Below, piece after piece: positions 3,089 through 36,725 of a DNA stretch of 64,000 nt. Numbering within the stretch: the stretch's first letter is position 1; each line of letters starts with the position of its first letter. The translations under genes and the position numbers were made by a program. Where the stretch lies: NCBI GenBank assembly GCA_000182565.2, contig KQ257464.1; one strand, given 5' to 3'. Source of the DNA: Spizellomyces punctatus DAOM BR117 (taxonomy: Eukaryota). The notes below the pieces were generated by a model. That model did no database searches, was not told the DNA's origin, and was given only the letters and a program-made list of their open reading frames with translations.

Positions 3089-3152
3089 CTTGATTTATAG
3101 AACAGAAGAGATATTATTTTTTCAGCTCTACATAGCAAAGGAAAAAACTAGT

Positions 3153-16700: not shown

Positions 16701-18027
16701 TGAGTCCAAGATCGCTCCGAAATGGCTGGGACCAGTCACGGTGACCGACTGTAACCCTCTCCGTGACAACTACGAGTTAAAACTGCCAGACAAGATGAGA
16801 CGACTTCATCCATGGTTTCACATATCGAAATTACGTCCATACCAGAAGCCTGTCGACGCCGAAACTGAGGAAAAGGTCACGGAAGCACAAGCGGAGGATT
16901 CCGATGCTTCAGATGGTGAGTTTGAAGTGGAAGCGATAGTAGACCATCGAACCAGGCGCGGAAAACGTCAATTTCGAATACGTTGGTCCGGATACCCACC
17001 CCATGAGGATACCTGGGAACCAGAGGAAGCCCTAACAGAGGCTTCCAAAGCCTTAGAAGAGTACTGGAGATCCAGAGCTCCCACTAGCGCGCTAGTAGAG
17101 GACTCTTTGGTAGTCAGCCTTGCAGGCGACACCCCGGAAGATACGGCTTATGCTTCCGACCACCAATGCTTCGCGGTTTATCCGGACGATAGCTCACGTG
17201 ATAATCACGCCCTCTCACCAGAAAGAAAACCAGTTTTGCGTGGCTTACCTCACCAGTCGAGAACGCCACACCAAGCCTCCCGATCACGCTTACGCGCGTC
17301 CAAGCTGTCAAAATCAGCCGGCGACGACCTTAAAAGGACGCCCCTGCACGCTCCCCCTCTTTTTTCTTCTTCAACCGCCCACGACCTACTTCCCTTACAC
17401 ACTCACTCTGCTTTGCAAACCCCTTCTATTGACACCGAAACTAAAACTTCCATTTCTAACACAATGAACACCGATCTCAGAGGACAAGCAGGAGTGAGCG
17501 TACCCTCCACGTACATGTCCGGCTACCCTTGGGAGGAAGACTCGGGCGACTTCGAGGCCGAGGGCGTGCTGGATCGCCTTGGGGTTGCGATCGCTACCTG
17601 GGTTCACTCCTGGGTTCATCAGCTTCAGACCAACCCCAACGCGCCGCTGCAGACTCCAGGGCATGAGTTTTGGCTGGGAGTCGACGCTCCGAAACCTTAC
17701 GCAGTGGGCCAGCCCCTCACAAACCACATCGCGGACCCCTACAGCAAGGCCACCGATGGTGGTGAAGCAGCAGTCGGAATAGTTGCCGATGCGAAAAAAC
17801 CCGGAAAAAGAGGGCGCCCAGCTCCGTGCGCCGCTTGGCTCGACCGCGGGGTTCCCCAACACGAGGCGGGAAGCCGAAAAACGGCTCCGTTCACCGATTG
17901 GCCGAACGACGACGCCCACGAGTTTGCGTCCGCCGTCATTGAAGCAGCTAGGACGGTGCTCCTAAGGACGGCGAACGCAGCGGAAGCCTCTGCAAGGCTC
18001 ACCAGACCCCGACATCACGAGCACGCG
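10771..18027 (+). pseudogene. Single-frame Gag-Pol polyprotein (zinc knuckle, protease, RT, RNase H, integrase, chromodomain) with two TGA stops; frame resumes at 33219-33440
   Basis: Motifs CKFCQKKHWNVFC, VLDTGA, FVDDI, LHSDAS, H-H-C-C, TDF/SDRD/SER and FEVEAIVDHR...WSGY...DTWEP. The three ORFs share one frame, with stops at 13771 and 15511. Confidence 0.92.
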
Positions 18028-18322
18028 TGCTGCAAGTGGTCACAGAATGGCGAAGAACGGAAGCTCTTGCTACATGTTCTCCCTACATAGCATTTTTATG
18101 AGAAAAGAGGGGGGACACAAAATACACTCCATGATTTTTGGGAAAAAGCTGTATAAATTTGGTTCAATTGATGAAAAAGATAGAACTAAATAGAAATATG
18201 CATCTGTTTAAATGGCCTCGTTGGTTTCCTGCTGAAAAACTGGTTGCATATTTCATGTAGGCAACTCAGGCGTCAGAACTCATCCCATCTCAACATTACC
18301 TTCGAGGCATACCAGCCGGGAT
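18028..18322 (+). repeat. Left terminal inverted repeat of the inner element
   Basis: Reverse complement of 32918-33212 with 2 mismatches, both at CpG. Confidence 0.95.
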
Positions 18323-18346
18323 CCTCATGTCCGTTCTTCAAACGGA

Positions 18347-19477
18347 CTACATCTGCGCCGGCATCTTCCGCCGCGGGATTTCTATGTGCGAAAATGTACC
18401 CTTCGGATGAACTTTTAACTTTTTCTGCTGCGCACGAGTACGAGCGGGCTGGATTCGGACAGGTATCAAGTCTTCAAGTTCTCTTGCTGCCTGCTTTTGC
18501 AAACGATCCCTTTTTTGTAATGCGGCTGCAACTTTGATTGTAACTGGTTCCTCGGTTTTGATGAGTTCATTATAGTTGAAAATTCGATCGGGAATCCCCT
18601 CTACCACATATCTATATGACCGCAGTTTGTCGAATGGTTTAATGACTTTCCCAATCTGATAAACATTGCTAGAGAAATTTTCTCGATGTGCCTTTTTGAA
18701 CACATTGCCTTCATGTTTGACACGAACATGATCACCGATGGAGAATATTTCAGGTTCTTTCTGATGCATCTTCTCCCAGTATCTTTCCAAGTTTATCAAT
18801 GCCTTATACGGTTTCTCGATTGCTTCATGGGGAGACATCCCAATACCGCGATGTTCTCGCCTGTTAATCATTGATACAAGTTCATTGAGAAAATCCAGCC
18901 ACCGCTTGTCGCCTTTATGAGTAAGAACTCGACCGATGGCTGACTTTACCGTTTTGATCATTCGTTCTGCTTCAAAGGCCATGTATATGATACGATGTTC
19001 TATTGCATAATCCCTCATGAGATCTTTGAATCCCCCTGACATGTATGCTCCACCAGTGTCAGTAACGATTTTGTTGGGTCTCATTTTATAAGTCTTTAGC
19101 GAACGATCGAGAATATATCGCATTGCGGAACATACGGAAGTCTCGTCCAATTTCTTCAATGGTTGTGTAAATACCATCTTTGAAAACTTGTCCACGCATA
19201 CCAAAATATGAGAACATCCTTTATTCTGACGAGGGTAAGCGTCCGATCCTAAAGCGAGACAATCGCTTTCCCAAACATCAAATGGTGCATATGTACGCTG
19301 AACGTTCAGGTTCAGCCTCTTCTTTTTTCGATGTATTTGATGAGTACGTTCTTTCTCCAGAAATGACTTTATGTCTTTCAAGGACAAGTCTGTCCCTTGT
19401 CTCTTCAGCATATTCTTCAAGCCGGATGCTCCTACCGGAGCTCCAGGCGTGTAATACAACTTCCGGAGTTCCTCCAT
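18347..19477 (-). CDS. Retroviral-like DDE integrase (Polinton type)
   Basis: WESD...LVCVDKFSK...IVTDTG...AERMIKTVK...INRREHRGIGMSP...FSIGDHVRV. Confidence 0.9.
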   Translation of the reverse strand: MEELRKLYYTPGAPVGASGLKNMLKRQGTDLSLKDIKSFLEKERTHQIHRKKKRLNLNVQRTYAPFDVWESDCLALGSDAYPRQNKGCSHILVCVDKFSKMVFTQPLKKLDETSVCSAMRYILDRSLKTYKMRPNKIVTDTGGAYMSGGFKDLMRDYAIEHRIIYMAFEAERMIKTVKSAIGRVLTHKGDKRWLDFLNELVSMINRREHRGIGMSPHEAIEKPYKALINLERYWEKMHQKEPEIFSIGDHVRVKHEGNVFKKAHRENFSSNVYQIGKVIKPFDKLRSYRYVVEGIPDRIFNYNELIKTEEPVTIKVAAALQKRDRLQKQAARELEDLIPVRIQPARTRAQQKKLKVHPKGTFSHIEIPRRKMPAQM

Positions 19478-19746
19478 ATTTGTATGTAACGCTTAATTTA
19501 TTTCATATAGAATTGTTTTACAGCATCGTTCGTTCTTTTTTGTTTTCGTCTATTCTCTGAAATGTCTAATGGTGCAAGATTTTCATAGTGATTTGATCCG
19601 CCTGTTTCTTGCACGAGCAGCCGCTCTAAGTCCTTTATTCGGCATGGCCGATACGTTGACGAGTTTTCGATGTGTTTTTGTCATATTCTTCTTGAGGCTT
19701 ACCTAACCAAAGCTTAGAAAAAATCATCGTGGTTCCTGTTGTTGAA

Positions 19747-21135
19747 CTATGCTGGTAACAAGCGAACACCATCACGGTCGATGCGCATCTCATGGTCAGT
19801 TGTCCAGAAAACATGGAATGTCTTGTCCTTGAATGTCTGAATATAATCAGGGTTAGCCGTAGTACCATCCGCTAGAGTAGGGCTTGGAAAATCGGCTACT
19901 TCCGGAGGGTTGGGATATTGACTCACATTGATGAGAATATGCCCATCGGCTAGAGTATTCAAACCACCGCCGATCATATCTGGACTTTGCTTGAAATTTT
20001 GCCTCCATGACCAATGCTGTATCTTTTTGCCTGCTAGTGCCCATCCTTCCAAATCGGACATAGTGGGGGCAAATCGCACATCATTGAAATCTTTATTACG
20101 TTGGCTTAATGCATACATTTCAGGATCTACAGTAGGTATAATATTAGTACCAGCACGAGCGGAACCGTTGGCAATCGCTTTTCCCTCAGGGAACCGCTGC
20201 GTACCCACCTGGATACTAACTGTTCTAATCCCAGCATCTTCACTGAAATTCAATTTGTCTACATCAGTTCGAACATTGTCAGTTGTCACCAACATCAATG
20301 ACGAAACAGAGGACTGCTCACCAGTCACAAGTGACAATTGCTGTACGCGACTGGCTTGCCCAGCAAACTCCTGACTCCACACAACTTGCATGGGGATGGT
20401 CAAGTATTCGTTGCTCTCCATTAGGCTAAGGATCTTGTTGTAGTATTCGGGTATGGGCTCGGCGAACTGGCAAATGAGTTCGTTCTGGACAATCTTGAAT
20501 GAATCTATTCCTGTGGATGTGGGGAAAATTTTGGCAAGTTCACTCTCTGCGGTCATCTCGACCTGGACACCACCTTTGACAAGACAGAGAGGGAAAGCCA
20601 CTTCATTTTGAAAGAATGACAGCGATGAGCCAGTGACAGTGTATGCCCTGTTTTTAGCAACCACTGCTGAACAGTCGTTAGCCACATCACTCGAATAATA
20701 TTCACATTGCCCAAGATGTTGTTTGGTTTCCCACGATGTTAGAGCGTTTTCATGTGCGGTGAACAAATTATAATCATTGAGATCTTCGATGATCCTTCCA
20801 TTAATAAGAACACTTTGGCGTTTCCATACAGCATCTGTTCCTGATTGACATAGCCTGTGGGTTGCAGTGGCAGAAACGATTTCCTGTCTATTTGCATCAA
20901 GCCCTACGACACGATATTTATGTAAGGTTTCATTCACAAGCCAAAAATGCTTGTCATCGGCTATTTTAAAAGTGATTTTGCTGCCAAAGTTACAGTCACC
21001 CGATCCGTTGGTAGGCTCGAAGCGAACCTGACTAGATGGCTGAAAATTCAGCACAACCCCGTTCTTGGCATTGCGCTTATACGTAAAGACGTTTGGGACT
21101 CGTCGAACCTCAGTTACCTGAATTCCTGAAGACAT
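19747..21135 (-). CDS. Major capsid protein (double jelly-roll, PLV type), inner element
   Basis: 462-aa beta-rich ORF next to the ATPase and minor capsid genes; motifs FGSKITFKI, INGRIIEDLNDY, FPLCLVKGGVQVEM. Confidence 0.8.
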   Translation of the reverse strand: MSSGIQVTEVRRVPNVFTYKRNAKNGVVLNFQPSSQVRFEPTNGSGDCNFGSKITFKIADDKHFWLVNETLHKYRVVGLDANRQEIVSATATHRLCQSGTDAVWKRQSVLINGRIIEDLNDYNLFTAHENALTSWETKQHLGQCEYYSSDVANDCSAVVAKNRAYTVTGSSLSFFQNEVAFPLCLVKGGVQVEMTAESELAKIFPTSTGIDSFKIVQNELICQFAEPIPEYYNKILSLMESNEYLTIPMQVVWSQEFAGQASRVQQLSLVTGEQSSVSSLMLVTTDNVRTDVDKLNFSEDAGIRTVSIQVGTQRFPEGKAIANGSARAGTNIIPTVDPEMYALSQRNKDFNDVRFAPTMSDLEGWALAGKKIQHWSWRQNFKQSPDMIGGGLNTLADGHILINVSQYPNPPEVADFPSPTLADGTTANPDYIQTFKDKTFHVFWTTDHEMRIDRDGVRLLPA

Positions 21136-21315
21136 TGTGGTTTAACTTACACATCTAGAAAAAAAAAACGTCACTTTTTAAGAAAAAGTGACATCAAAAA
21201 TTGTGCCTTTCGGAAAGGAGTTTGCTGTCCTAAATAGCCTGAACTCAGTCGGTGTAGCTTAACAAGTTACAATGGTTGTCAAAGCGAGGGGGTCAAAGGG
21301 GGACAGCCTATCCCC

Positions 21316-21987
21316 CTACGAAAAACCAACTCTAAACGGTCTTTTCGAACTTTGTAGATTTATGTGCACAAAATGAAATGGTTTCTTTGTATTATCCATA
21401 ATGAACTTTTCAAATACATCTTCAGGTAAAGCGAGAGATAAGCCTGATTCGATCATTTTCTTAAGTTCGCTTTTCAAAGGTCTAAAAATGATCCAGTTCG
21501 TCACATTGCTACGGACAGCGGGACTATTGTGATAAAAATATTGACTCGACAGGATGCAGGTGATTCCAGCGTGTCTACCCCGTGTAGCCAACTCATCGAG
21601 TGACTTCTTATGTCCTTTCTGCATATTGTAGTCATCTATGATAAGAAGTAAATCTCGTTTTCTTCCGCTTCGAACAAATTCATAAAGTTGCTCTTCGTGT
21701 ATAAAATTGAGTATTTCATTGGAAATCTTGTCAAATATATGAACCTTTTTGCTCGTTCTTAAAGGGTTCCAATTGGTGTCATGCGGATTTGGTGTGAATA
21801 TTATGATATTCGAATACTGCTTCTTCAAGAACAATTTGCATATCACAGCAATGTTTAGCGTTTTACCGCTAAATCGAGCGCCATTGTATACGATAAAACC
21901 ATACTTTCTAGGAAGCCGTGGATCTGTATTATCCTTTATTCGTCCAGAGACTTGACTAGGTAAGGGGGCAATTGTGATTGGCTTCAT
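21316..21987 (-). CDS. A32/FtsK-HerA-type genome packaging ATPase
   Basis: Walker A GARFSGKT, Walker B LLIIDD, RGRH arginine motif, SSQY, VRSN. Confidence 0.92.
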   Translation of the reverse strand: MKPITIAPLPSQVSGRIKDNTDPRLPRKYGFIVYNGARFSGKTLNIAVICKLFLKKQYSNIIIFTPNPHDTNWNPLRTSKKVHIFDKISNEILNFIHEEQLYEFVRSGRKRDLLLIIDDYNMQKGHKKSLDELATRGRHAGITCILSSQYFYHNSPAVRSNVTNWIIFRPLKSELKKMIESGLSLALPEDVFEKFIMDNTKKPFHFVHINLQSSKRPFRVGFS

Positions 21988-22035
21988 TGCACTTGTTTTT
22001 TATTTGCTCTCTGTATCTATAATACATTAGAAGAA

Positions 22036-22779
22036 ATGAAAAAGTTGATTCTCGATAGCAACAGAGCGACGAACGGAAACAGGAATGAACCTAAATGGAC
22101 TCTAGCCGAACCCATTGCATGTGATAAAATTCGATACAATTCGATCATTTTGCCCCTTTCGTGGGACATAGTAAACGACAAGAACAATATTGTCTCCTTT
22201 TATGATGCTGGGATGGGTAATGCTGCAAGGACTTTCGTTATACCTCCTGGTACTTACTCTCCAGATGATTTAGTGGATGCACTGACTGCTGGATTCAACT
22301 CTACAGGGACGCAAGCATACACTGTAGAATACAATCATATAAACAATCAAATCACAGTGACCGCGGGTACAACACCATTCAAAGTTCTCTACCCTCAAAC
22401 CACAGCAAGCAAACTGCTCGGATTAGTTCAGACGCAGCAATCTGACCCTGGGAGATCAATAACTTTTGCAAATCCAATCGATTTGACAGGTGTTAAGATG
22501 GTGCTCGTAGCCTCATCTAACATAAGGTCAAATGATGTCATTTATGCAGGCGCAGATGATTTAAATATCATTGCCTCTATTCCGGTGTCGCAAGAAATTG
22601 AAACTGTCCTATGTGCGCAGAATTATTTTGACACCGACTTCATTGACACAGAGTCTGGCCTTGTTAGTACGATCGACATCCGTTTGCTTGATGCAGAAAC
22701 ATTGCTACCCTTGGATCTACAGGGCAAAGGGTTCACTTTAGTTCTCGATTGTCATTCCTCCGGCTTTCCAGATGATTAA
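22036..22779 (+). CDS. Minor capsid (penton, single jelly-roll) protein
   Basis: N-terminal LILDS, IPPGTYS and C-terminal IDIRLLD...LDLQG...FTLVL pattern typical of PLV/virophage pentons. Confidence 0.8.
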   Translation: MKKLILDSNRATNGNRNEPKWTLAEPIACDKIRYNSIILPLSWDIVNDKNNIVSFYDAGMGNAARTFVIPPGTYSPDDLVDALTAGFNSTGTQAYTVEYNHINNQITVTAGTTPFKVLYPQTTASKLLGLVQTQQSDPGRSITFANPIDLTGVKMVLVASSNIRSNDVIYAGADDLNIIASIPVSQEIETVLCAQNYFDTDFIDTESGLVSTIDIRLLDAETLLPLDLQGKGFTLVLDCHSSGFPDD

Positions 22780-22806
22780 TTTTTTTTCATTTGGAACATG
22801 TAAAAG

Positions 22807-23124
22807 ATGTTGCATCAAAAATTCGCAAACTTTCTCTCAAGTGCAAAAAACTTTGGTCTTAGAGCGCTGAACAGTTATAACAAAGTTAACAATGGTATTA
22901 GACAATTTGTTGCCCATGCTGGACAAGCCAAAGATATCTATGGGAAAGTTCATCAATCTCTTGTCCATGACGAATCTGTACCCATCAAAGTAAGAGAGAC
23001 AATTTCACGAGGACGAGGCTATATCGATGATCTCCATAAAGGTCTAGGGCGGGGCTATGAGATTCAACAAAATTTTGATTCAGCCTTAAGGAAATCGCTT
23101 CCTGTTGAATTAGCGGGGTATTAA
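22807..23124 (+). CDS. Small amphipathic virion-protein candidate
   Basis: 105 aa with FANFLSSAKNFGLRALNSY amphipathic helix; lies directly after the penton; homolog at 2789..3088. Confidence 0.6.
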   Translation: MLHQKFANFLSSAKNFGLRALNSYNKVNNGIRQFVAHAGQAKDIYGKVHQSLVHDESVPIKVRETISRGRGYIDDLHKGLGRGYEIQQNFDSALRKSLPVELAGY

Positions 23125-23147
23125 TGCTACTTTTAGAAAAAGTAGCG

Positions 23148-23408
23148 TCAAATGATTTCATTCAAGTCATCACTGTAAAGAGGATTTTCATGAATAATAA
23201 CATATTCGTTCCAGTTAATACCCCCCGCATCAGCGTCTGGGATGATGGTTTCCTTACTGTATGCCAATGCCGGCTCAGGCATGCGAGGTTCCTCCAGTTC
23301 TCTTATAATTCGAGAAAGAACTGTTTCCATTTCTTGCCCTTCATTCCTTTCAGCCAACTTCTTCCTCAAACGCTCTTGTATCCGTTCCTTCCTTTGCTGA
23401 GACGACAT
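23148..23408 (-). CDS. Viral hypothetical protein (86 aa)
   Basis: ATG at 23408 after an AT-rich leader; fills the gap between neighbouring viral genes. Confidence 0.45.
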   Translation of the reverse strand: MSSQQRKERIQERLRKKLAERNEGQEMETVLSRIIRELEEPRMPEPALAYSKETIIPDADAGGINWNEYVIIHENPLYSDDLNEII

Positions 23409-23457
23409 TCTTCTTTTTTTTAATAATACTATATAGTAAAATACAGAATAGAACGAT

Positions 23458-24435
23458 ATGTCTGTTGCCGAATTAGTAAAACTACTACAGCAAGGTAACA
23501 CTGATGTAACTGCTTACAACTCTGAGCAGGTTGAACGTGATGTGTTCTGGAAAGAAAAAAGAAAATGGGTTGACTCAAAGTTACCTACAGGCTATTTCAA
23601 GCACCCGCTGTTAAACAAGTATCGTTCATTTGGTAAGGTTGATACACAATTCATCAGTGACCCATACTATATTGAAATTGATAATAGACGTTTTGGTGAA
23701 CTGAGAGATGAAAATGGACGCTCTTTGAATCCTGATACATTTCGTCCTGTTGTGTCTGATGCAGAACTCAAACAGATGCGGGAGGGTCGTACCCGGATGA
23801 ATGCTCCAAGTGCTAATCAAGAAACTAGGTATCCGATAAACCACGGTAGTGAAGGATACAAAAATGACATAGATTTGATTGCACGCATCCGACGAATGCG
23901 CGAAGGTTATGAAGAGTTTATAAAAGAGGAAAAACGTAAGGAATTGGCTGACATACAGCGTTTCCGCTCTTCACATGGTATTCACAATCCTGGGGAGAGT
24001 TTGCTAGAAACAACTGGCTTGGGCACTAGGGGTACTGATATTTCTGCCTCAAGAGATGAATACAACATGCAACGTGGCGTGATACGACCTACTCCTGCTT
24101 TGTCTGAGAACATCTTTTATGAGGAAGGAGGCACGCCACCTACACAATTAGTTCTACATAGGCAATCTGAATCACCAACCTCAGGCTTACCATCACTAGC
24201 GCCGATGGATGACTCACCATCTCCATCATCATCTGCATTTGACTTCACAACAATGCAGCCATCGCCAAGGCTTCACGAGAGGAGAAACCCGAGAGAATCA
24301 TCCTTGCAGGAAGTTTACAATCCAAGAACCGGTAATTGGATTAGAAAAAATGGTAAGGTACACAAGGAACTTAAGAAAGAGTGGGCAAGTAATTCTTATA
24401 AGATACCATCATCATGGACAAAAGAACCTCGCTAA
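23458..24435 (+). CDS. Viral hypothetical protein with C-terminal NPxTG motif
   Basis: 325-aa ORF ending VYNPRTGNWIRKNGKVHKELKK. Confidence 0.6.
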   Translation: MSVAELVKLLQQGNTDVTAYNSEQVERDVFWKEKRKWVDSKLPTGYFKHPLLNKYRSFGKVDTQFISDPYYIEIDNRRFGELRDENGRSLNPDTFRPVVSDAELKQMREGRTRMNAPSANQETRYPINHGSEGYKNDIDLIARIRRMREGYEEFIKEEKRKELADIQRFRSSHGIHNPGESLLETTGLGTRGTDISASRDEYNMQRGVIRPTPALSENIFYEEGGTPPTQLVLHRQSESPTSGLPSLAPMDDSPSPSSSAFDFTTMQPSPRLHERRNPRESSLQEVYNPRTGNWIRKNGKVHKELKKEWASNSYKIPSSWTKEPR

Positions 24436-24474
24436 GCGTATTTGGGTTTTTTTATTTTCTATTTACAAGCTAAA

Positions 24475-25275
24475 ATGCCTAAAAAAAAGGAATCTATGCC
24501 GGCGCAGAGCCAAATGCCGGCAGGCATGCCTGACATTACAGATGAAGAACAAAGTTTGAATGATGATGATGAAACTAATGACGATGATCATCAAGACTAT
24601 GTTCAAGAACTTGTAAACAAATATGCCGGGCCCGGAGCGGCCAATCCCGGCAGGGATGCCGGCGCAGAGCCTAATACCGGAGAGGTCAATGCCAGCGCTC
24701 CCAAAAAACAAACTGCATCAGAGAAGCAGCGAGCACATTTAGAAAAATCCCGAGAAAAGGCTCTTCAGGTTAGACGAGAACTCGCCGCCAAGAGAAAAGA
24801 AGAGAGAGAACTAGAAAAGAAGAGAAAAGAGGAGGAGAGGATTCTTGCTAAGGCCGAGGCTCTTAGGGTGGAACAGGAAAAACGTGTCGAGGCTAGGCTC
24901 CGCGCTGAGGAGGACTTACAAAATACTTCATATAGTCACAAGACTAAAAAAAGAATTAAAATGCCGATACCAAAAAAAAGACGGAAGATTGTAGTTGAGG
25001 AATCGTCAGACTAAGAAGAAGATGATTCTTCAGATGATTATGAGGAAGTTGTCAAAGTCATCAAGAAAAAGAGAAATCGCCCCGTTCACCACACTCGCGC
25101 AGATGTAGTCCGTTTTAAAAATGGACATGAGTATGTCGGGCACGGAGTGGCCAATCCCGGCAGGGATCCCGGCACAGAGCCATATGCCGGCAGGCATGCC
25201 GGGCACGGAGTGGCCTATCCCGGCAGGGATATCATGCATACCAAACCACCATCGATCTTTGATGACATTGTATAG
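24475..25275 (+). pseudogene. Viral coiled-coil/basic protein with one internal TAA (25012-25014)
   Basis: The frame stays open after the TAA (EEDDSSDDYEEVV...SIFDDIV*). Homologous to 76..624. Confidence 0.55.
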
Positions 25276-25333
25276 ACCAAATGTCGGCATGCAATTCATT
25301 TTCTAAGCTATGATGATATAAAGGAATAAGAAG

Positions 25334-28300
25334 ATGCCTTTGCCTAATAGCATTCAAGGCACATATACGGTTCGAAGAAATTTAGAAGTCCTAGATAATT
25401 TCAAGTCCAGAAAAGTTAAAGCCAATTCTATCTATGGAGAGAGCCTACGGAATAAAGATGGTATAGTCACTATACTCGATTTGGATAGTCAAACGCCTAG
25501 TCTCTCCATTCAGAAAAATAAAGGTAAATATACCATCTCTCTTGCCGAGACAACTTATGTTTTTCCATTAATTGATGATGAACATGATGTCAGGCTTGTA
25601 ACAGACGATACTCTGCTTATAACAGAAGACGGCTTATCTGTTAAACCAGAGACACTCCTGCAACCTCTCTATAGGGCTCCCGACTCACGAACAGTAAGCC
25701 TAAACATTGATGATGATGAACTAAAAGTTGAGGATGAAAAATTAACAGTCATTCCTTATAACTATGATTTTCCACTCTACAGGGATGCCGAATCATGTAC
25801 GGTTGGTTTACAAGCAGATGATACTTTGCTTATAACTGAAAACGGTCTATCGGTTAATTTTCCTGATCCTGAGACGCTGAAAAAGCCGTTGTATCGTGAC
25901 CAGAGCGGCCTTGGAATCAAACTTCATAAAAGTCTAAAGGTGAACAATAATGACGAATTGGAAACTAACATTCAGTCGGTACTAAAAGCATTTGGCGCTC
26001 TGAAATCGAGTTCAGGTGCGGATACGTTGTTAGACATCGGGTCTTCATGGCTCGACTTTGGATTCGATAGTTTGACCGAAATGACTGATGTGTTAGGAGA
26101 AGTAGATACCACAGCCATTCGCCTAATGGTAGATAGTTCCACATTCAGTCAAGCGGGTTCGAGATTGTCCCTGAAATCACCCGGATATGAACAAATCATG
26201 TATGGGAACCTTACTTATGGCTACTCGGGAAGTTCTTCATTCACCTATTCGTCCACGCTTCAGGAGTTGCGTGTACCCAATGTAAAGTTAAGCGGAACAT
26301 TGCCTGCGATTGGAGGTGGCTCGTATGCTGTAAGTAAAGACTATCTTTCGCAATTTTATCAAGGCTCTCAAACTGGAGCGATTGCAGTGGGACCCGAGTT
26401 TAGTGGAAGACGTGAAATCGGTGTGCTCGTTGATAACCAAACAGTTCGAGTTGTAGGTAACCAGTTAACAGGTGGCTACATTTTTCAGGACTTTAATGGA
26501 GTGGCGGTTCGTCCTGGCACTACAAACGATATTATGCTGTCTCTCAAATGTGAGGCTGGCAGTTGTCTCCAAATGGTCAAAGCAGATACCATTAAAGACG
26601 TACTGACTTGCAGCAATGGTATCGAGAGAGTACAGAATGACCTTCAACTCGATCTAAAAGTTGATGCTAACAGCGGTTTGGCTATGGTCAACAGGGGTAC
26701 CATACGGGATATCTTTACAGCCTCCCAAGGGGTCACCAGGATGGGGAACGACTTCAGACTGAGTTTAACAGCACAGTCACCCGATCTTACTCTAAACAAT
26801 GGTGTTCTGAGTTCAAACATCGCTGCGGGAATTGGACTGCAAAAAAATGGTGCGATTTTGTCAACAAACCTAAGAGGTATCAATGGAGTGCAAGTTAGCG
26901 GCGATTTGATTTCATGTTCGATTTCAGGAAGTGATACTATTCTTCGCGTAGGCAATTCCTTAAGAGGTAATTATGTGGGCAGTACCAACTCATATGGAAG
27001 TATTATTGTTGTTGGAAATACGATTCAGTATAACATGATTCCTCCTCAATTCGTAAGTAACAGTCCAAATCTCATCATTACAGGTTCGTATCCGCTTTAT
27101 AACTTTACCCTCATTGACCCTACGCCACTATCGAAACAAAGGGATACCGATAATACTGAACAGACTGATACCGCAGAAGTGTTGAAAACGGATGTTCCTG
27201 GAGGCAACGTAGTTGTCCTTAGTGGCTTAACACCGCTTACAGCAATACCTTTCCCAGCGATGGTATCGCCGCCCTTGACAGTCCCTATGGCTGTAAACTC
27301 CATCCTCCCAATCGTCTCAACGTTCCCTTGGGGAATGATTTTCGGAGGGTCACGCAAACGTAAGGTTCAACGAGATGCGGAAGGCCAACCTATACTCGAT
27401 GGCGATGGAAATAGACCCTGTTACCTTCATGCCACCATTGGAGCCAGGCTCTAACATTGCAATTGCTTCAGACCCTATTGGAGGTTGTACTCGTCTCTTG
27501 TTTGATACGCCTTCATGTTATCGAGGCATCAAATACGAATACCCTCAGCAAGCAATTAATCTCTCGATGTTAAGAGATTACGACAATGATGTTATCAAAC
27601 CTTGGGTCGGAAGCCAGATAACTAATCTAACTTCAAATAATGTTACATTTGGCGGCAATATCTCAGGGAAAGTCATTACAGGAAGCAGAGTTCAAACGAC
27701 CGCCTCTGTAGCAGGAGGCTCGTCTGTCTTTATTTCAAATAGTTTTGACGGTACAAAATCGTCTTGGCTGGGTCTGGATGGTTCTGGTTTTTTAGGGTAC
27801 GCTAGTGATGCTGCTACGTGGTTAGGAGCACAAGACAAGCCGATTTACATTTACGGACGGACATCTAGTGCAGTATCTCTGGGTCTAAGAGTGGACACAA
27901 ATGGTTCATGCCTTGTTGGTAGTGACCTAACTGTCGGAGCCTCTTCTGTAAATGGGTTACGTGCCCTTACCGTAAGCAATGCAAGTACAGGGACGAATGG
28001 ATGTAGTATTCTTTATCTTACGGCCTCAGGAGGTTCTGGAGTGATGTTTTTGAACGGAAACAATAGGAGTGTGGACGGAGGCATTAACGCAATGACGTTG
28101 AGAAATGATATTGGTAACCTTCGGCTTCAAGCACAGACCGCTAGAGGACTGACAATACTCGCGAACACTGGAATTGTTACACTGGATGCTACAAATGATG
28201 CATCCTCTACAACAACAGGTGCATTACAGGTTGCTGGTGGATTAGGAGTCCAAGGCACAGTGTACATGGGAAAATATGCTATTATATCTACTACAGCGGC

Positions 28301-31300
28301 TGCTGCCTTTCAAATAAACAATGGATCATTCGGATATACAGCAACAGCAGGTCAATGGGTAACAAATTCAGTTGCTGGAGACTACATCATTCGAGCCTCC
28401 GCTAGTAATTTGCGTATCGGTACAAATAATGCAACGGCTTCGAATTTGGATATTCTCTCATCTGGGAATGTTATTATCAATATGACAACTGATGCTACTT
28501 CCTCAACATCCGGCTCGTTCCAGGTGAAAGGCGGTGTAGGCATCGCTAAATCACTGTACGTTGGAGGGGATGTATACACAAACGGAGTGAAAGTAGCCAC
28601 GGAATCCTTTGTAACAACAGGATATCAGCCCCTGATTACACCTGCGAGTTCGCTTAACCTGAGCGGTTTAACGGTACAAAATTCAAACACCAATGCTTCA
28701 GCGATCACACTAGGGAACACTAGTGCTGCACAGACATGGAATATCCATGTGGCTGGTTCTGCAAACTCGAATCTGCTAACTGGAACACTCGGTTTCTACT
28801 CTTCCCTTCAAGATAAGGGGTATGTTTTCCAAATTGACCCATCAGGTAATACGGTCATGAGTGGCGGCCTAGGAGTATCAACTGATGCATATATTGGTGG
28901 AATGGCTTACATTGGTGGTATTGAAGTTGCAACTCAGAAATTTGTAATTGATAACACCGCTCCAATAAGTCAATCCTTGTCTTCATTGACAACCACAGTT
29001 AATAATAACAATAATACCGTTACTACTGCACTCGCATCGAAGCAAACAATGAACAGTGCTACCAACTCCATCTATAGTATGACGGTACAACCTGATAGTT
29101 GGCTATATTCTTCTGCTGGAACTACGTTCGAGAATGTTACTTCCACTCAAGTGAAAGGCATCCTCGATATAGCAACCAACGCTAATGTGAATACACTCCT
29201 TTCTGGTAAACAGAACAACATAACTACATCAACTAATTTGAGTCTTGCCTCAGTTACGGCTAGTGGTTATGTAACAGTAATTAATGGTGCCAATCCAACA
29301 TATATGTCCCTGGTCAACACTTCGTCAAATATCACTTGGGGTCTTCGAGTAGCAGGTTCAACAGCCGATGGCTCTAACCCTGCAGGTGGGTTCGGAATCA
29401 ACTGTTCATACAACAACATCGGCTATGTCTTCAAAATTTCCAACACCGGTATTACACAGATAACAAATACCTCACAATCGACTAGTTCAACTACAGGAGC
29501 ACTTCTAGTAAGCGGGGGTTTAGGTGTTGCAAAGGACTTATATGCGGGAGGAAATGTGATTAGTAGCACCTCTGTGGATGCTCCAAACTGGGTGCAATCT
29601 AGAAACGTTTCGTCTGGCGTTAATGCCTATTCAGCCGTTGGTTGTGCCAATGATAGCGGAAATGGAGCCTTACTCTTTCTCAACTCTTCTACAAGGACTG
29701 CTGATGGCTCGTCGAATAACGCTACACTTAGGAATGACTGCGGGGACATGAACATCCAAGGAAAATCAGGTCTCGGATTGGGTCTACGGATTGTATCCAT
29801 TTCAAATGAAGTGAAAGTCTTGACCGCTACAGACTCCTCATCTGTGACATCAGGAGCCTTGCAGGTATCTGGGGGTGTTGGAATTGCGAAGACTCTGTGG
29901 GTTGGTAATAAGGTAACCAGTGGAAAAGGGACTGGCTATGGTTTTGGATGGGGTAGCATCGGTGGAAATGTCAATACTGGTGACATGACATTCTTCTCCC
30001 CATCTTCGAATGGCCAAGCCTTCTTCAACGATCAGATTAACGATGTCTGCCTGTGGGCATGGAATACTAACCTGAGATTTGGTGTTACAAATAGTTCATC
30101 TCAACTAGATATTCTCTCATCTGGGAATGTCGTTATCAATACAACCACAGATGCTTCATCCTCAATCACAGGTGCATTCCAAGTAAGGGGAGGTGTTGGA
30201 ATATCTAAGAATCTCTACTGTGGAGGGAGTCTGTACTCCAATAATCTGAAAGTTGCAACCGAGAGTTATGTAGGGGCAGCCATTGCTTCAAAACAGACAT
30301 CGAGTCCGCTCCTAGATTCCATTAGTGGAGTCACACTATCTGCAAATTCTTTCATTTTAGGGAGTTCTGCAACGACATTCGCGGTGAAAACTCCTGAAGA
30401 GGTGAAGACAATATTAGGCATTACAAATGTCGATCTCTCAGTGAAGCAAAATGCATCACCCTTACTCTCTACTCTCGCTGCGATGTCACCAATGAGCAAT
30501 ATGTTTCTCATGGGAGATGATGTCCAAGGATTCACTCTCGCAAATGACATCGCTGTGCGAAGTATTTTAAACATTGTTGACTATGCCCCCAGCATATCAG
30601 CACTGCAAACATCGAAACAAGATTTACTCACACCTACCAGCAATCTGTCGGTAAATACAATTCTTGCTAATGATACATCCGAGGCAACAACCGTATCAAG
30701 TGGGGCTCTACAGGTTAAAGGAGGAATAGGGGTTTCTAAAAGTATCTTCTCAGGTGGAAACATTACTGGAAAAGTTCTTATAGCAGCCTCTACAGGTGGA
30801 TATTTCAAGTTGAGAAGCGACACTCCCTCTACGAAAGGAGACTATACTATTTCCTACAACAACTCCAGAGATGCCCTTCACGTCCACCTCGCCAGCTCGT
30901 CTGATAGCGTAGACCAACGTCGTTATGAATTCGGTCATTATTCCAGTGATACCTTTGGAACATGGAATAGCCGATTCTCGGTTAACACCTACACCGGAGA
31001 CCTCATCTCATCCGGTAATCTAACTATCGGTTTGCCACTTAACGGGCTACGGGCTATTATTCTTAAAAACCTCGACTCTGGTAGCAATAGTTGTGCCATC
31101 CAATACTTCCAGAATGCAGCAGGTTCTGCTGTTATGTTTTTGAATGGAAACAACCGGAGTGTCGATGGAGGTCAAAACGCGATGACGTTGAGAAATGATA
31201 TTGGAAATCTTCGGCTCCAAGCACAGACTGCTAAAGGACTAATGATACAGGCAAACACCGGAAATGTCACAATTGATTCTACAACACCAGCATTGAGTTC

Positions 31301-31808
31301 TTCCACAGGAGCATTGGTCATTTCAGGAGGTGTCGCGGTTGCTGCACATGTTGTTGCAGGAGGGAATCTGTATTCGAACGGTGCTGTCTATAGCAATGGT
31401 CAGGTTTGTGCTACTCAACCATGGGTTGCCAGTCAAACATTTCTAAGAAATGTTCAAGTTATCAAACTTTTGACTAAAGACGTGTGGCAATCCAACAATG
31501 CCTCGAAGGTCTTCTATGTTTCGACACCTGGCAAGGTACTTATGGAGTGGACGCTCAACCTCCATGGCACAGCAAACTCAAATGGTACATTGTCAATATT
31601 TCTTGGCCAAAGTGCTGGGTCGATGCCTCTTGTGTACTCGAGCGACTTTAACTTTAATTCGGGAGTCAATCGTACAATCACAGCAGCCTTTGTTGTTACA
31701 GGGATGTCCGATAACGTTGCTTACTTCACAAATTTTAGTATCAGTCAGGCTGCTCCCGATAACACAACTGATGTTACCCTCATTAAAATCACTGAACTCG
31801 GACAATAG
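25334..31808 (+). pseudogene. Giant fibre/spike-like protein of the inner element, frameshifted by a 17-bp deletion near 27410
   Basis: Compared with the outer copy (GATGGAAACCCTGTTTACGAACCAATAGAC), this copy reads GATGGAAATAGAC. Restoring the deleted bases joins ORFs 25334..27454 and 27375..31808. Confidence 0.85.
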
Positions 31809-31863
31809 ATTACGCGCGCTCTACCGTTATTAAAAAAAATTGAGCAAGATAAGAATGCGACGC

Positions 31864-32318
31864 NNNNNNNNNNNNNNNNNNNNNNNNNNNNNNNNNNNNN
31901 NNNNNNNNNNNNNNNNNNNNNNNNNNNNNNNNNNNNNNNNNNNNNNNNNNNNNNNNNNNNNNNNNNNNNNNNNNNNNNNNNNNNNNNNNNNNNNNNNNNN
32001 NNNNNNNNNNNNNNNNNNNNNNNNNNNNNNNNNNNNNNNNNNNNNNNNNNNNNNNNNNNNNNNNNNNNNNNNNNNNNNNNNNNNNNNNNNNNNNNNNNNN
32101 NNNNNNNNNNNNNNNNNNNNNNNNNNNNNNNNNNNNNNNNNNNNNNNNNNNNNNNNNNNNNNNNNNNNNNNNNNNNNNNNNNNNNNNNNNNNNNNNNNNN
32201 NNNNNNNNNNNNNNNNNNNNNNNNNNNNNNNNNNNNNNNNNNNNNNNNNNNNNNNNNNNNNNNNNNNNNNNNNNNNNNNNNNNNNNNNNNNNNNNNNNNN
32301 NNNNNNNNNNNNNNNNNN
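31864..32318. other. Assembly gap (455 N)
   Basis: Run of N. Confidence 1.
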
Positions 32319-32320
32319 AT

Positions 32321-32560
32321 ACAAACCATAATGGCTTCATAAATTATTCGTCTATAGCATTTTTCAGAAATCGAAAGCATCTTATCACCATAAACCTGAA
32401 AACCCTAATGCCTGTCATCAAGGATCCTACGCTAGATAAAAGGGCGATCTGCAAATGCATATTGCAGCATCAGGAAACTCTATTGGACATGGATGACCAC
32501 ATTATGAATGTGGGGAAAGAATATGCTCAGTTGAAGAATATTGCTTCTAAAGGTACTTAA
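32321..32560 (+). CDS. 3' part of a viral hypothetical ORF that starts in the gap
   Basis: Open frame from the gap edge (TNHNGFINYSSIAFF...NIASKGT*). Confidence 0.4.
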   Translation, partial: TNHNGFINYSSIAFFRNRKHLITINLKTLMPVIKDPTLDKRAICKCILQHQETLLDMDDHIMNVGKEYAQLKNIASKGT

Positions 32561-32598
32561 AACGCACGCTGAATAATCTTCCACTCATGATAATAAAA

Positions 32599-32967
32599 AT
32601 GCGCATTTCGATGCGTTGCGATACTTGTACAGGCTTTAGAGAATATCAACTCTGCATATGTCTGAAATGCGCTGTGTATTCCTGCTATGAATGTTTGGAT
32701 AAACTAAAAAACTATTCGCATGGTCGAAATCATGCTATCGTTCATCATGATTGTCAACAGTACATATCTACCGCTTTCGCCGCTCGCCGTGCCGGCATCC
32801 CTGCCGGGATTGGACGCTCCGCGCCCGGCATGCATGAAGAAAGAAAACGAAAGCCCAGGGCTACATGTAAAAAAGTAGCATCAAAAGCGGCGGAAGATGC
32901 CAGGCGCGGAGCGGCCAATCCCGGCTGGTATGCCTTGAAGGTAATGTTGAGATGGGATGAGTTCTGA
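32599..32967 (+). CDS. Cys-rich zinc-finger-like viral protein running into the right TIR
   Basis: CDTC...CICLKC...CYEC...HHDC. Confidence 0.5.
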   Translation: MRISMRCDTCTGFREYQLCICLKCAVYSCYECLDKLKNYSHGRNHAIVHHDCQQYISTAFAARRAGIPAGIGRSAPGMHEERKRKPRATCKKVASKAAEDARRGAANPGWYALKVMLRWDEF

Positions 32968-33212
32968 CGCCTGAGTTGCCTACATGAAATATGCAACCAG
33001 TTTTTCAGCAGGAAACCAACGAGGCCATTTAAACAGATGCATATTTCTATTTAGTTCTATCTTTTTCATCAATTGAACCAAATTTATACAGCTTTTTCCC
33101 AAAAATCATGGAGTGTATTTTGTGTCCCCCCTCTTTTCTCATAAAAATGCTATGTAGGGAGAACATGTAGCAAGAGCTTCCGTTCTTCGCCGTTCTGTGA
33201 CCACTTGCAGCA
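32918..33212 (-). repeat. Right terminal inverted repeat of the inner element
   Basis: Ends ...CCACTTGCAGCA, followed by TSD CACGCG. Confidence 0.95.
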
Positions 33213-33487
33213 CACGCGGAGTACCATTTCCGCGCGACAAACCTGAAAAGGGCCACGGAGACCTTTACGGCCCTCTACATAACCAGAACTGGCCCCGACG
33301 TGACCCCGGGTACCATCGTTCATACCGCAACAGATCAAATCTGGTTTTGTTGCAACGTCGGTGGCCGTGCCAGTATCATCTGGGTCGTGAACCAAGATGC
33401 AGATGAAGCGGACCCCACAGATCCGGTACCGACCTGGTAATTGACGTCCCAACACCCCCGCTCGGAGCGCCGGTGCGTTGGCTCTTC

Positions 33488-33497
33488 AAAGGGGGGA
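33488..33497 (+). promoter_or_regulatory. Polypurine tract of Gypsy-B
   Basis: AAAGGGGGGA immediately before the 3' LTR. Confidence 0.85.
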
Positions 33498-34097
33498 TGT
33501 AACGATGAGGACATCTTCGAGAGATCGCGAGTAAGCCCAAATCGGACGCGGGAAGCACGAATCGCGTGACCAACTCCACCAATTGAGTTACCGCGACCGA
33601 AAAAACCGGTTCGGAGAATGGCAATTGGCGCATTAGATTTCAGCGTGCCTCGTACAACCTGTGGAGGCCCGAGCCAGTGCGGAAAAGGAAGAGATCGGTA
33701 CTGCCACCAATAAATCAGTTGCGGTGCAGCAACACCCATTAGTTTAGTTTAGTTTAACAGTTTATCCAAGAATCTTGTATAAAAAGGATGTATTCAATAA
33801 AATAAGTCGGGGGCAGAAGCCGTAGCGACACAAAATCCCCATAACTCGCTTCTCAACTCCAATCTTAGGTTAACAGGAACCTAACAGAGCGCTTCAACGG
33901 CCTGATCACCTGTACCGAAGCCTCTAAATCCTGCTCGGTTCACAACTAACCGACTCTCCTTGCCTCTCGCCCCCAAGTCGCTACCGACGCCCAAAGAAAG
34001 GATTCGGAGACTATGATTCCTAGTACGGCCACCCACATAACCTGCTAGGAGACCCAAGTCGTCTTTACCGTAGTCTACCAACAAAAAATCCGCTACA
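33498..34097 (+). repeat. 3' LTR of Gypsy-B
   Basis: 600-bp direct repeat of 10016-10615. Confidence 0.95.
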
Positions 34098-34101
34098 TCC
34101 T

Positions 34102-35115
34102 CCACGGGCGGTTATTTCAAGTTGAGAAGCGACACTCCCTCTACGAAAGGTGACTACACTATCTCCTACAACAACTCCGGAGACACCCTTCATGTCCACC
34201 TCGCCGGCTCATCTGATAGTGTAGACCAATGTCATTATGAATTCGGTCATTATTCCAGTGATATCTTTGGAACATGGAATAGCCGATTCTCTGTCAACAC
34301 ATACAATGGAGACCTCATCTCGTCCAGTAATCTAACTATTGGTTCGCCACTTAATGGGTTATGGGCTATTATTCTTAAAAATCTCGACCCAGGGACCAAC
34401 GCTTGCTCTATTCAGTACTTCCAGAATGCTATTGGTTCTGCTGTTATGTTTCTAAATGGAAACAATAGGAGCGTTGATGGAGGCGCATCGACATTTACGG
34501 TGAGGAATGATGCAGGTTCAGTGCAACTGCAAGCGCAGGGAGCAAAGGGTTATCGCATCGTTGACAGGAAATGTCATTGTTGAAATCACCACTCCAGCTT
34601 TATCGAGTACAACTGGTGCATTGGTGGTGTATGGAGGTGTTGCTGTTGGAGCCCATGTAGTGGCAGGAGGGAATCTTTATAGCAATGGCCCAGTTTACTC
34701 GAATGGTCAGGTTTGTGCTACTCAACCATGGGTTGCCAGTCAAACATTTCTTAGAAATGTTCAAGTTTTCAAACTTTTGACTAAAGACATGTGGCAATCC
34801 AACAATGCCTCGAAGGTCTTCTATGTTTCAACACCTGGCAAGGTACTTATGGAGTGGATGCTCAACCTCCATGGCACAGCAAACTCAAATGGTACATTGT
34901 CAATATTTCTCGGCCAAAGCGCTGGGTCGATGCCTCTCGTGTACTCGAGCGACTTTAACTTTAATTCGGGGGTCAATCGTACAATCACTGCAGCCTTCAT
35001 TGTTACAGGGATGGCCAATAACGTTGCCTACTTCACAAATTTTAGTATCAGTCAGGCTGCTCCTGATACCACCACAGATGTTACCCTTATTAAAATCACT
35101 GAACTCGGACAATAG
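34102..35115 (+). pseudogene. Outer fibre gene, 3' part (frameshift near 34550)
   Basis: Removing the LTR element gives KVLIASSTGGYFKLRSD, matching KVLIAASTGGYFKLRSD of the inner fibre. Same C-terminus ...KITELGQ*. Confidence 0.9.
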
Positions 35116-35168
35116 ATTACACGCACTATTGCTATTATTAAAAATTGAGGAAGCTATACAAAGATAGA

Positions 35169-35483
35169 ATGCAATGTGTGGACGTTCTAGGTCATTCAGT
35201 CTTCAATATCAAAGACGCCGTGAAGGGTGACATCGATAACTTCTGGAGATATTGTCAAGGTATGCTGACAGGAGATAAAAAATGTATCATATTGTATCTT
35301 CCGAAAACAGACCAGAACGAACACATCTTCAAAGATATTATGTCAATCATTCACTTGAAGAAACTGGATGAAATCTGTTTTCGAAATTCTGGCTACTTGG
35401 CCATTCTGCAGGATTGTGTTCTCTTAGGACACAATCATAATGAAAGGCTCTTTGTTCTAGAAATGCAGATGGAAAGTGCATGA
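35169..35483 (+). CDS. Viral hypothetical protein (104 aa)
   Basis: Intronless ORF directly after the fibre gene. Confidence 0.4.
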   Translation: MQCVDVLGHSVFNIKDAVKGDIDNFWRYCQGMLTGDKKCIILYLPKTDQNEHIFKDIMSIIHLKKLDEICFRNSGYLAILQDCVLLGHNHNERLFVLEMQMESA

Positions 35484-36521
35484 ACATGGCTTCCCTTTTT
35501 TTTCTCTATAAAAGATGGGGATGCAGATGGAGAACTGTATCCCCATTGGGTCATACAGTCCTTTCCTTTTCATGGCTTCTTTCATTGGACTGACCACAAA
35601 AAGAAACAAAAAAGAAACCACATGCATCTGAAACACAGATGCCAACACAGCTTTTCGACGATGAGGAGTAACGAATCCCTCAAGCCCACCTAGCCAGTTT
35701 AACCCATTTTTTATAAGCTTTTTCATTTTCGATTTCAATTTACTTTTCTCAAAAAGTTTTTTCATTTTGATATTACACATATATCCTAAAAAAAGTGGAT
35801 AGATTGGCTAGGATACATAAGGAGAGAGAAAACACTTACATCTATGAAAATGTTTAATTCTAAACCACCTACATGAATGTAGACAAGAGAAGTCTAGCAG
35901 ATGAGAAAATAGGATAAACTAGGACACGAGAGGATGGCAGCTAATAAGACTTGGTCCATGCAGGATGGCAGTTTTGCACCTACATACCCATTGTTCACAT
36001 TTAGGAAAAAGGCACATTCAAACAGATAAGAGTAACCAGGCTTTTTCCTTATGAAACCACTGTTGTCAAAAAAATAGGCCTAGCTTGTCCTATTTTTTTG
36101 TCTGCTAGACTCCTTTTGTCTACATTCATGTAGGGAGTAAAGAAACACATTTATATATATATGGAAGAAAAAAACACTCCATATATATTCTAGCCACTCT
36201 AACCACTAATTTAGGGGTAATGTGTAATATCAAATGAAAAAAACATTTTGAAAAAAGTAAAATTGAAATTGAAAATGAAGAAGCTTGTAAAAACAGTGTT
36301 AAAATGGCTAGGTGGGCTTGAGGGAAGATGGCATCCCACTTTGTCAATGAGAGATTGAACATGTTATATTGATAGGATGAGAGAACATCTATTGAACCAT
36401 TTTATCGATAAGATGGGAGAGTTCCTTTTCCATTTATAAAAGAGGGTCGCCAGTCTCCCCCCAGTCCCTCCCCAGCTCGAAGCCTTCTTTTCAAAAATGA
36501 TTCCATATACAACAATTAACA

Positions 36522-36725
36522 ATGGACTATGCAAATGATTGTGTGCTGGTGCCGAGATGGATATTGGAATGGTTGCTTTCAGGGAACAATGGACACCAAA
36601 GTCTAGAGCAAATCTGCATGGATTGTGGAAGGAGGTTTCAATTGCGAAGAATTGGACAGAAAGGATACAAGTTTCGATGCTATCCTTGTTGGAAGAGATA
36701 TGTGGAGAGACGAGTCCACAGATGA
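36522..36725 (+). CDS. Small CxxC...CxxC zinc-ribbon-like protein
   Basis: 67 aa, CMDC...CYPC, with an A-rich leader. Confidence 0.4.
   Translation: MDYANDCVLVPRWILEWLLSGNNGHQSLEQICMDCGRRFQLRRIGQKGYKFRCYPCWKRYVERRVHR

Follow-up and report, generated by a model that had tools for sequence, protein, structure and literature searches.

How a virus that has carried an integrase and a set of virion genes into a fungal chromosome can be propagated when no gene for copying its DNA is visible is the question raised by a locus of the chytrid Spizellomyces punctatus DAOM BR117. The locus lies in a stretch of 64,000 nucleotides of contig KQ257464.1 (assembly GCA_000182565.2), referred to here as the window, in which the element in question, element A, occupies positions 18028-33212 (15,185 bp). 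An earlier note on this DNA had read it as a complete integrated virus, possibly representing a minimal class of satellite that borrows its replication from the host or a helper virus. The absence of a replicase is real as far as profile searches can see, and is better read as the mark of a reduced or defective derivative than of a new class. The interpretation favoured here, with confidence and doubt about evenly balanced, is that element A is a chytrid polinton-like virus (PLV) of the MELD kind, from the Spizellomyces/Powellomyces lineage, that became endogenous recently and is reduced or defective, without DNA replication of its own.

The ends of the element can be placed exactly. A repeat search of the window recovered inverted arms of 299 nt at 18024-18322 and 32918-33216 that are 99% alike; because the outer four bases are those of a partly palindromic target site, the terminal inverted repeats (TIRs) proper measure 295 nt and differ at two positions, 18048 and 18304 (99.3% identity). 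Both are flanked by the 6-bp target site duplication (TSD) CACGCG, and the earlier identification of TIRs and TSD therefore stands. Independent proof of these boundaries comes from contigs built from public reads: two runs from one other sample, X1 and X3, each yielded a contig that joins 18021 straight to 33213, skipping 15,191 bases with six letters that fit both sides. This empty site is the uninterrupted form of the multi-copy gypsy retroelement that hosts element A in its pol region. The insertion is recent, and its TIR-bounded length falls within the 10-41 kb of PLV genomes, which are bounded by TIRs or circular. For all the exactness of the ends, the label 'complete' is doubtful, because the fibre gene is split and an internal assembly gap is probably longer than the 455 N that represent it.

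Most of the virion genes named in the earlier note can be confirmed. The predicted DDE integrase scores 34.1 bits (E 3.5e-8) with Pfam rve, for which the cut-off is 32.6, and D72, D140 and E169/E171 are invariant in 6/6 aligned homologues. These six are the only homologues found; one, 55% identical, comes from Powellomyces hirtus, where it is encoded on a separate contig of 6.4 kb, the S. punctatus reference contributes none, and a sequence search of the PDB gave no match. The major capsid protein (MCP) is identified by its fold. The 462-aa sequence matches no Pfam family, its alignment finds nothing in the PDB by sequence and tblastn against a phage collection was equally empty; the AlphaFold2 model, built from a 47-sequence alignment (pLDDT 80.7, pTM 0.82), has 124 Foldseek matches in BFVD at E <= 0.001 (best 4.7e-21, TM 0.65), among them capsid proteins of nucleocytoplasmic large DNA viruses (NCLDV), ascoviruses and virophages. 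Against the PDB the nearest folds are of NCLDV type, namely the MCP of grouper iridovirus (9.5e-17) and Vp54 of PBCV-1 (1.4e-16), at TM 0.56-0.60, with the Sputnik MCP in 46th place (5.2e-12). The modelled fold leaves no doubt that this is a double-jelly-roll (DJR) capsid protein.

The packaging ATPase is likewise borne out by Pfam Pox_A32 (E 2.7e-7; 30.8 bits, cut-off 22.8), with a weak match to the packaging NTPase B204 of STIV (E 0.017). The 247-aa open reading frame (ORF) that had been called a penton is probably a penton or minor capsid protein, judging from its ESM Atlas assignment (0.98) to clusters of 253-310 aa proteins whose members are 94-100% viral; its match to DUF5901 reaches 17.1 bits, under the cut-off of 26.4, and four PDB matches by sequence at E 0.55-1.5 are taken as chance. 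A prediction of the complex of two copies of the penton candidate with fibre residues 1-110 scored 0.00, which is counted neither way for binding. Of the three genes that make up the PLV core, the MCP is thus supported by fold and the ATPase by Pfam, and the minor capsid protein is only probable.

The fibre region, 25334-31808, does cover about 40% of element A, as had been stated (6,475 nt, 42.6%), but consists of two ORFs in different frames and not of a single gene. Its history can be followed through a second PLV in the window, element B, which carries the same gene as one ORF of 1790 aa. The 5' ORF of element A is 73% identical to residues 105-714 of this protein, and the 3' ORF is 80% identical to residues 946-1789 and 89% identical to the translation of 34507-35115. 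A DNA alignment indicates that element A is without 17 nt at ~27410 relative to the copy in element B, which shifts the frame; since raw DNA reads from a separate study carry no indel at this position, the frameshift is not a slip of assembly. Values of dN/dS between the two copies are 0.19, 0.24 and 0.15 over 601, 309 and 720 codons, and dS falls from ~1.1 in the 5' portion to 0.44 in the 3' portion, implying that the fibre evolved as a coding gene and that its parts have different histories. By these values, both halves were under purifying selection before the split. Nucleotide identity is 74-87%, and the N-terminal 80-100 residues, which would be the part attached to the capsid, differ. 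The likeness to adenovirus fibres, a feature of MELD viruses, is drawn through element B, residues 122-157 of whose ORF match Pfam Av_adeno_fibre (24.4 bits, cut-off 22.7), together with the 73% identity of element A to it; the fibre ORFs of element A have no Pfam hit of their own, and the 706-aa ORF retrieves by sequence from the PDB just a capsid decoration protein (E 0.052).

The claim that protein-primed PolB (pPolB), a primase-helicase and an adenain-type protease are missing holds throughout the visible sequence. Polymerase, helicase, primase, Rep and protease families match 0/10 main ORFs of element A and 0/77 stop-to-stop segments of 55 aa or more from all six frames at E <= 1, a threshold to be read with the fact that HMMER filters drop most matches above about E 0.1. 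Outside the unread gap there is accordingly no recognisable polymerase of the kind that defines Polintons; nor does any frame hold their adenain/Ulp1-like maturation protease, the replicase of MELD viruses (Beta PolB, S1H or another), or the cysteine protease that accompanies a virophage-type MCP, the nearest folds to the MCP of element A being of NCLDV type. The coordinates of element A and of its surroundings are collected in Table 1.

Table 1. Features of element A, the gypsy retroelement around it and element B (positions in the window)
Feature	Position	Strand	Basis or remark
TSD, left copy, CACGCG, 6 bp	18022..18027
Left TIR	18028..18322	+	295 nt
rve (DDE) integrase, 376 aa	18347..19477	-	Pfam rve
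DJR MCP, 462 aa	19747..21135	-	AlphaFold2 fold and Foldseek
A32-type genome-packaging ATPase, 223 aa	21316..21987	-	Pfam Pox_A32
Candidate penton / minor capsid protein, 247 aa	22036..22779	+	Sub-threshold DUF5901, ESM Atlas
ORF, 105 aa	22807..23124	+	No family
ORF, 86 aa	23148..23408	-	No family; overlapped by 99-aa ORF 23124-23423 (+)
ORF, 325 aa	23458..24435	+	N-terminal 230 residues conserved, then P/S-rich linker and small 2C_adapt-like domain at C-terminus
ORF, 179 aa, K/E-rich	24475..25014	+	No family
Three units of ~33-nt repeat	25133..25230		Core ATCCC-GGCA-GGGAT; upstream of fibre gene
Fibre 5' ORF, 706 aa	25334..27454	+	Ends 45 nt past the 17-nt deletion at ~27410
Fibre 3' ORF, 1477 aa	27375..31808	+	Frame differs from 5' ORF
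First 9 nt of small ORF cut by gap	31855..31863	+	Placed like start of 104-aa ORF of element B (35169-35483)
Assembly gap, 455 N	31864..32318		Sole N run in the window
ORF, 126 aa, Cys/His-rich	32587..32967	+	Extends into right TIR; no family
Right TIR	32918..33212	-	295 nt
TSD, right copy, CACGCG, 6 bp	33213..33218
Ty3/gypsy long terminal repeat (LTR) retroelement	10016..34098	+	Reverse transcriptase, RNase H, integrase, chromodomain ORFs
Element B, left part	1..10015	+	Left end off the window; no integrase, ATPase or replicase in view
Element B MCP type 2, 417 aa	666-1919
Element B HNH-AP2 ORF	2007-2741		Pfam AP2 2.2e-13, HNH_3 1.9e-9
Element B fibre ORF, 1790 aa	4648-10020
Element B, right part	34099..36900 (approx., right end undefined)	+	Fibre 3' end to 35115
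Element B 104-aa ORF	35169-35483		67-aa Cys-rich ORF beyond palindrome

The relatives of element A are concentrated in its own order of chytrids. At E <= 0.001 the MCP retrieves 12 proteins, of which one is its own and nine come from Spizellomycetales (six from P. hirtus, with S. punctatus, Gaertneriomyces semiglobifer and Geranomyces variabilis contributing one apiece). The Spizellomycetales homologues are 45-81% identical to it, the S. punctatus one, SPPG_05487, at 67% and the six from P. hirtus, on contigs of 10.6-16.4 kb, at 45-72%. One P. hirtus gene model (P0011) fuses a fragment of the ATPase, 75% identical to residues 56-140 of that of element A, to a fragment of an MCP, from which it follows that the two genes have stayed adjacent in that species. 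The MCP profile links to 74 proteins, mostly metagenomic and of ~410 aa, and BLASTP links agree. Scans of IMG/VR with the MCP alignment (A1), a further alignment (A5) and three proteins (P0015, P0016, P0033), and one JGI metagenome scan with alignment A5, found no relative. Contigs that share sequence with element A part from it at 19594-19600, 28592-28759, 30481 and 32985, the first of these being the junction of integrase and MCP at the 3' end of the MCP gene, leftward of which the contigs from the other sample continue in unrelated sequence. These departures imply that there are variant copies in which the left arm and parts of the fibre are different. DNA reads from a chromatin immunoprecipitation (ChIP) study cover element A evenly, at a summed depth of ~4-16 (mostly 8-12) against 4.3 in a unique flank, which fits a low copy number, although ChIP depth is not a copy count.

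These observations can be drawn together in the following way. Element A entered the gypsy retroelement by means of its own rve integrase, leaving the 295-bp TIRs and the 6-bp duplication, and brought with it a virion module of DJR MCP, probable penton, A32 ATPase and very large adenovirus-like fibre. It may be a reduced derivative of a lineage that normally carries one of several interchangeable replicase modules. Being presumably unable to copy its own DNA, it would persist through replication of the host chromosome, and packaged genomes could arise only with replication provided in trans, by a relative that has a replicase or by a giant virus. Candidate sites of action in cis, for the integrase or for a replication or packaging factor, are the 33-nt repeats found at the inner edges of both TIRs and ahead of the fibre gene. 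As the Powellomyces MELD relatives carry replication modules, loss is the simpler reading of their absence here. The satellite class proposed in the earlier note keeps its factual basis, in that no replication gene is recognisable and the gap is a poor place to hide one, but a separate class is not established: chytrid PLVs and PLVs without a replicase have both been published, the relatives carry replicases, absence of pPolB and protease is the norm for PLVs, the fibre is frameshifted and element A is silent in the one RNA run used.

Several points weigh against a reduced or defective derivative. All ORFs except the fibre are open and the TIRs are nearly identical, so element A is not a decayed relic; a layout without a replicase could be its normal, selected state, and the halves of the fibre might function as separate proteins. 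Neither the 325-aa ORF nor any of the five small ones matches a family, and a small initiator could lie inside the assembly gap. No sister copy bearing a replicase was seen in the IMG/VR and metagenome scans or in the reads used, and it is by inference that the published Powellomyces MELD viruses are equated with the six P. hirtus contigs that encode similar MCPs. The transcriptional silence, an RNA depth of <= 0.15 over element A against ~340 in the adjacent LTR, is that of one raw RNA run, of which 6% of the reads were used, from a strain that bears the same species label and is not known to carry the element.

The openness of the non-fibre ORFs, the youth of the insertion and the lack of a replicase in any frame would also suit a dedicated, helper-dependent satellite lineage, in which integrase and virion genes are selected and replication is borrowed from a replicase-bearing PLV or a giant virus. 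There are precedents for parts of such a life cycle: the PLVs Gezel-14T and Tsv-S2/S3 are reported to need a giant virus (PMC10120064; preprint 10.64898/2026.06.19.733378), zoosporic fungi do have giant viruses, an MCP of giant-virus type being reported from G. semiglobifer (PMC13533422), and PLVs of the group VC40 are described as having no detectable replication genes. Paralogues of the 325-aa ORF that have diverged from it, to 67% and 49% identity, occur in S. punctatus, so the lineage has been multiplying. However, the gene set is known from a single copy, the frameshift in the fibre argues against a copy kept by selection, the giant-virus-dependent PLVs, as described in those sources, still encode replication proteins, and no helper was identified. 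Such a lineage is considered unlikely. A similarly low probability is attached to the broader proposal that chytrids harbour a lineage of viruses made of integrase and virion genes only, parasitising a helper (a sibling PLV or a giant virus of the Mycodnaviridae type), with the 33-nt repeats as cis sites recognised by that helper and the fibre as a cassette for host range that PLVs with unrelated capsid genes exchange.

A different way of retaining autonomy would be for element A to encode its own initiator, unseen by profiles, which recruits the host replisome to the 33-nt repeats; the candidates are the 325-aa, the K/E-rich 179-aa and the Cys-rich 126-aa ORFs. None of the 105-, 86/99-, 325-, 179- and 126-aa ORFs matches a family above threshold. 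The 325-aa ORF, the one mid-size ORF without an assignment, belongs to a family of six homologues in all, including the 99% identical SPPG_05631 of S. punctatus, which is conserved over residues 1-230 in six sequences and matches nothing else: a search of the PDB with its alignment found no match by sequence, and the ESM Atlas gave no usable one. Its C-terminus scores 19.1 bits, below cut-off, against Pfam 2C_adapt, a 2-cysteine adaptor domain. Also in favour, the core of the repeats is found 16 times against 2.74 expected by shuffling, always within element A and at the inner edges of both TIRs (18312-18322 and 32918-32928), with other copies at 24514, 24644 and 32797. Against this, no frame gives a signal for a Walker-type or polymerase family at E <= 1, and the AlphaFold2 model of the 325-aa protein, built from an alignment of six rows (pLDDT 47.4, too low for comparison of folds), is mostly low-confidence coil and helix, confident just at about residues 270-320; as far as so shallow an alignment allows, the protein does not resemble an enzyme. 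Units of the 33-nt repeat are found within coding sequence too, and their varying number is what a minisatellite would show: among copies, joints skip 33 nt from 25195 to 25229 and from 32791 to 32825, and the joints in other copies comprise 33-nt and 119-nt skips. An initiator of this kind is considered unlikely. The repeat stretches as a whole extend over 24514-25230 and 32789-32836 and fall within two ORFs. As for the remaining ORFs, the 179-aa protein may at a guess be a core or DNA-binding protein; it shares a 16-residue match with an ORF of element B at 76-378 (E 0.003). The 105-aa and 325-aa ORFs show no similarity to the 99-aa and 336-aa ORFs of element B. Runs of at least seven T occur in 6/21 regions upstream of start codons, too weak a signal for a promoter motif to be called.

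The assembly gap is, as the earlier note said, the only unread part of the element, but is probably longer than its 455 N. In run X1 of the other sample, a 1,079-nt contig matches 32319-32935 and extends 493 nt beyond this to the left in sequence that does not fit onto the left flank of the gap, indicating a gap of probably at least 0.5 kb (at least 490 nt). Elements A and B are conserved after the fibre stop as far as the ATG at 31855, and the gap opens 9 nt later, within a small ORF placed like the 104-aa ORF of element B. Hence, despite this contig and its failure to reach the left side, it is very improbable that a replication gene sits in a gap of several kb, and a polymerase there is unlikely, given where the gap begins, that the stretch of element B from the fibre stop to the small Cys-rich ORF measures just 1.4 kb, including a ~650-bp imperfect palindrome of the kind that breaks assemblies, and that 455 N looks, in our reading, like a size estimate and not a placeholder. 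A palindrome of this sort in element A may have broken the assembly.

The window is a nest of three levels: element B contains the gypsy retroelement, which contains element A. The LTRs of the gypsy element (10016-10616 and 33498-34098; 601 bp) are 98.3% alike, and it interrupts element B exactly inside the fibre gene. Element B is older and decaying, its fibre frame having five stops between 34102 and 34506. Outside the fibre, no DNA similarity between elements A and B can be detected, and at the protein level there is just the 16-residue motif mentioned above. The 417-aa ORF of element B gives no direct match to MCPs of the type found in element A, either by hhalign against their profile or by BLASTP; it does match, at 1e-27 to 1e-22, the metagenomic proteins of ~410 aa that were retrieved with the MCP profile of element A, some of which are hit by both. 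By these sequence links, which run through shared metagenomic relatives, it appears to be a capsid protein of another type. Different MCPs with the same fibre imply that two PLV lineages carry one fibre gene. The imperfect palindrome of element B, at 35676-36325 (~650 bp), has arms of 87 and 89 nt that are 76-83% complementary, and sits between the 104-aa and the Cys-rich ORFs.

Further observations concern the gypsy family and the rest of the window. Over 16518-17790, 16/17 listed differences have A/T in the window and G/C in reads of other copies, implying that this copy has gained G>A and C>T changes of the kind that cytosine deamination would give. The 3' LTR (33496-34102) has strong RNA signal on both strands (depth ~177 and 165), and 53 RNA reads end at 33835 in an untemplated run of A, suggesting a polyadenylation site within the LTR. 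A second, partial copy of the same family lies at 37294-39477 on the minus strand, with 88-89% protein identity to 10771-13773, and is preceded at roughly 37040-37290 by tandem repeats of ~30 nt. Ordinary fungal genes follow from 42 kb onward.

Double-stranded DNA viruses of fungi are scarce, and genome replication in PLVs is not a settled matter. A culturable chytrid that holds an almost intact provirus with precisely placed ends would allow excision, replication, particle formation, the need for a helper and the roles of the ORFs to be tested. The shared fibre of elements A and B, with its unequal divergence along the gene, is a concrete case of module exchange, and their nesting provides the relative order of insertion. 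New here are this nesting within a gypsy element inside a second PLV, the sharing of a fibre by elements with different capsid genes, the 17-nt deletion in the fibre, the position and minimum size of the gap and the absence of RNA signal. The literature search found no description of the nesting, of the shared fibre or of a chytrid PLV without a replicase, although supplements may hold one.

Comparison with known systems places element A at varying distances from each. Virophages (Maveriviricetes, such as mavirus and Sputnik) are also small integrating DJR viruses, and dependence on a helper is a possible lifestyle; their gene content includes a cysteine protease and a replicase, pPolB or PolA-S3H, neither of which is detected in element A, and the Sputnik MCP is a weaker structural match than those of PBCV-1 and the iridovirus. 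Polintons, Mavericks and adintoviruses share with it long TIRs, a 6-bp TSD, an rve-family integrase, a DJR MCP, a penton and an ATPase of A32/IVa2 type, and adintoviruses have fibre-like genes too; it differs from this group in the lack of a detected pPolB and adenain/Ulp1-type protease and in an MCP of dissimilar sequence. The VC40 PLVs, of 15-20 kb and "lacking any detectable replication genes" (preprint 10.64898/2026.06.19.733378), resemble it in size and in that absence. They are defined there by an NCLDV/Yaravirus-like MCP, Tlr6F and a DNA methyltransferase, and no frame of element A contains a Tlr6F or methyltransferase family; conversely, element A has an rve integrase, which goes unmentioned in the available text of the preprint. 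The same preprint places chytrid ATPases at two positions in the tree, which fits the two PLV types in the window. Many endogenous elements have been reported without a detectable polymerase, in a survey that excluded fungi (Bellas et al. 2023, PMC10120064).

Closer to hand, one integrated PLV in S. punctatus is reported to found the "S. punctatus group" (SP group) of 27 genomes (Bellas & Sommaruga 2021, PMC7805220), and element A may be that PLV itself or a second one. Integration in the chromosome, a core of MCP, minor capsid protein and ATPase, and the absence of a protease are common to both, as is the host, to which the matches with SPPG_05631 and SPPG_05487 tie element A; integrated elements of this kind are likewise reported to have TIRs, a TSD of 5-7 bp and an rve integrase. 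PLVs at large are said by the same source to lack a protease and rarely to carry pPolB or rve, and the absence of pPolB and protease is the stated norm (PMC7805220; PMC11161782). A chitinase is reported in 52% of the group and was not found in the ORFs or six-frame segments of element A, and the main text of PMC7805220 is without mention of a missing replicase, a giant fibre, nesting or a second type of MCP. The six Powellomyces MELD genomes (Starrett et al. 2021, PMC8502044) are described as combining adenovirus-like vertex fibres with Beta PolB or one of several non-PolB replicases, where element A has none detected. MELD viruses 1-6 are otherwise alike to it in coming from the same order of chytrids, in genome size and in the adenovirus-like fibre, and it is to this already published kind, the chytrid PLV or MELD viruses, that element A belongs.

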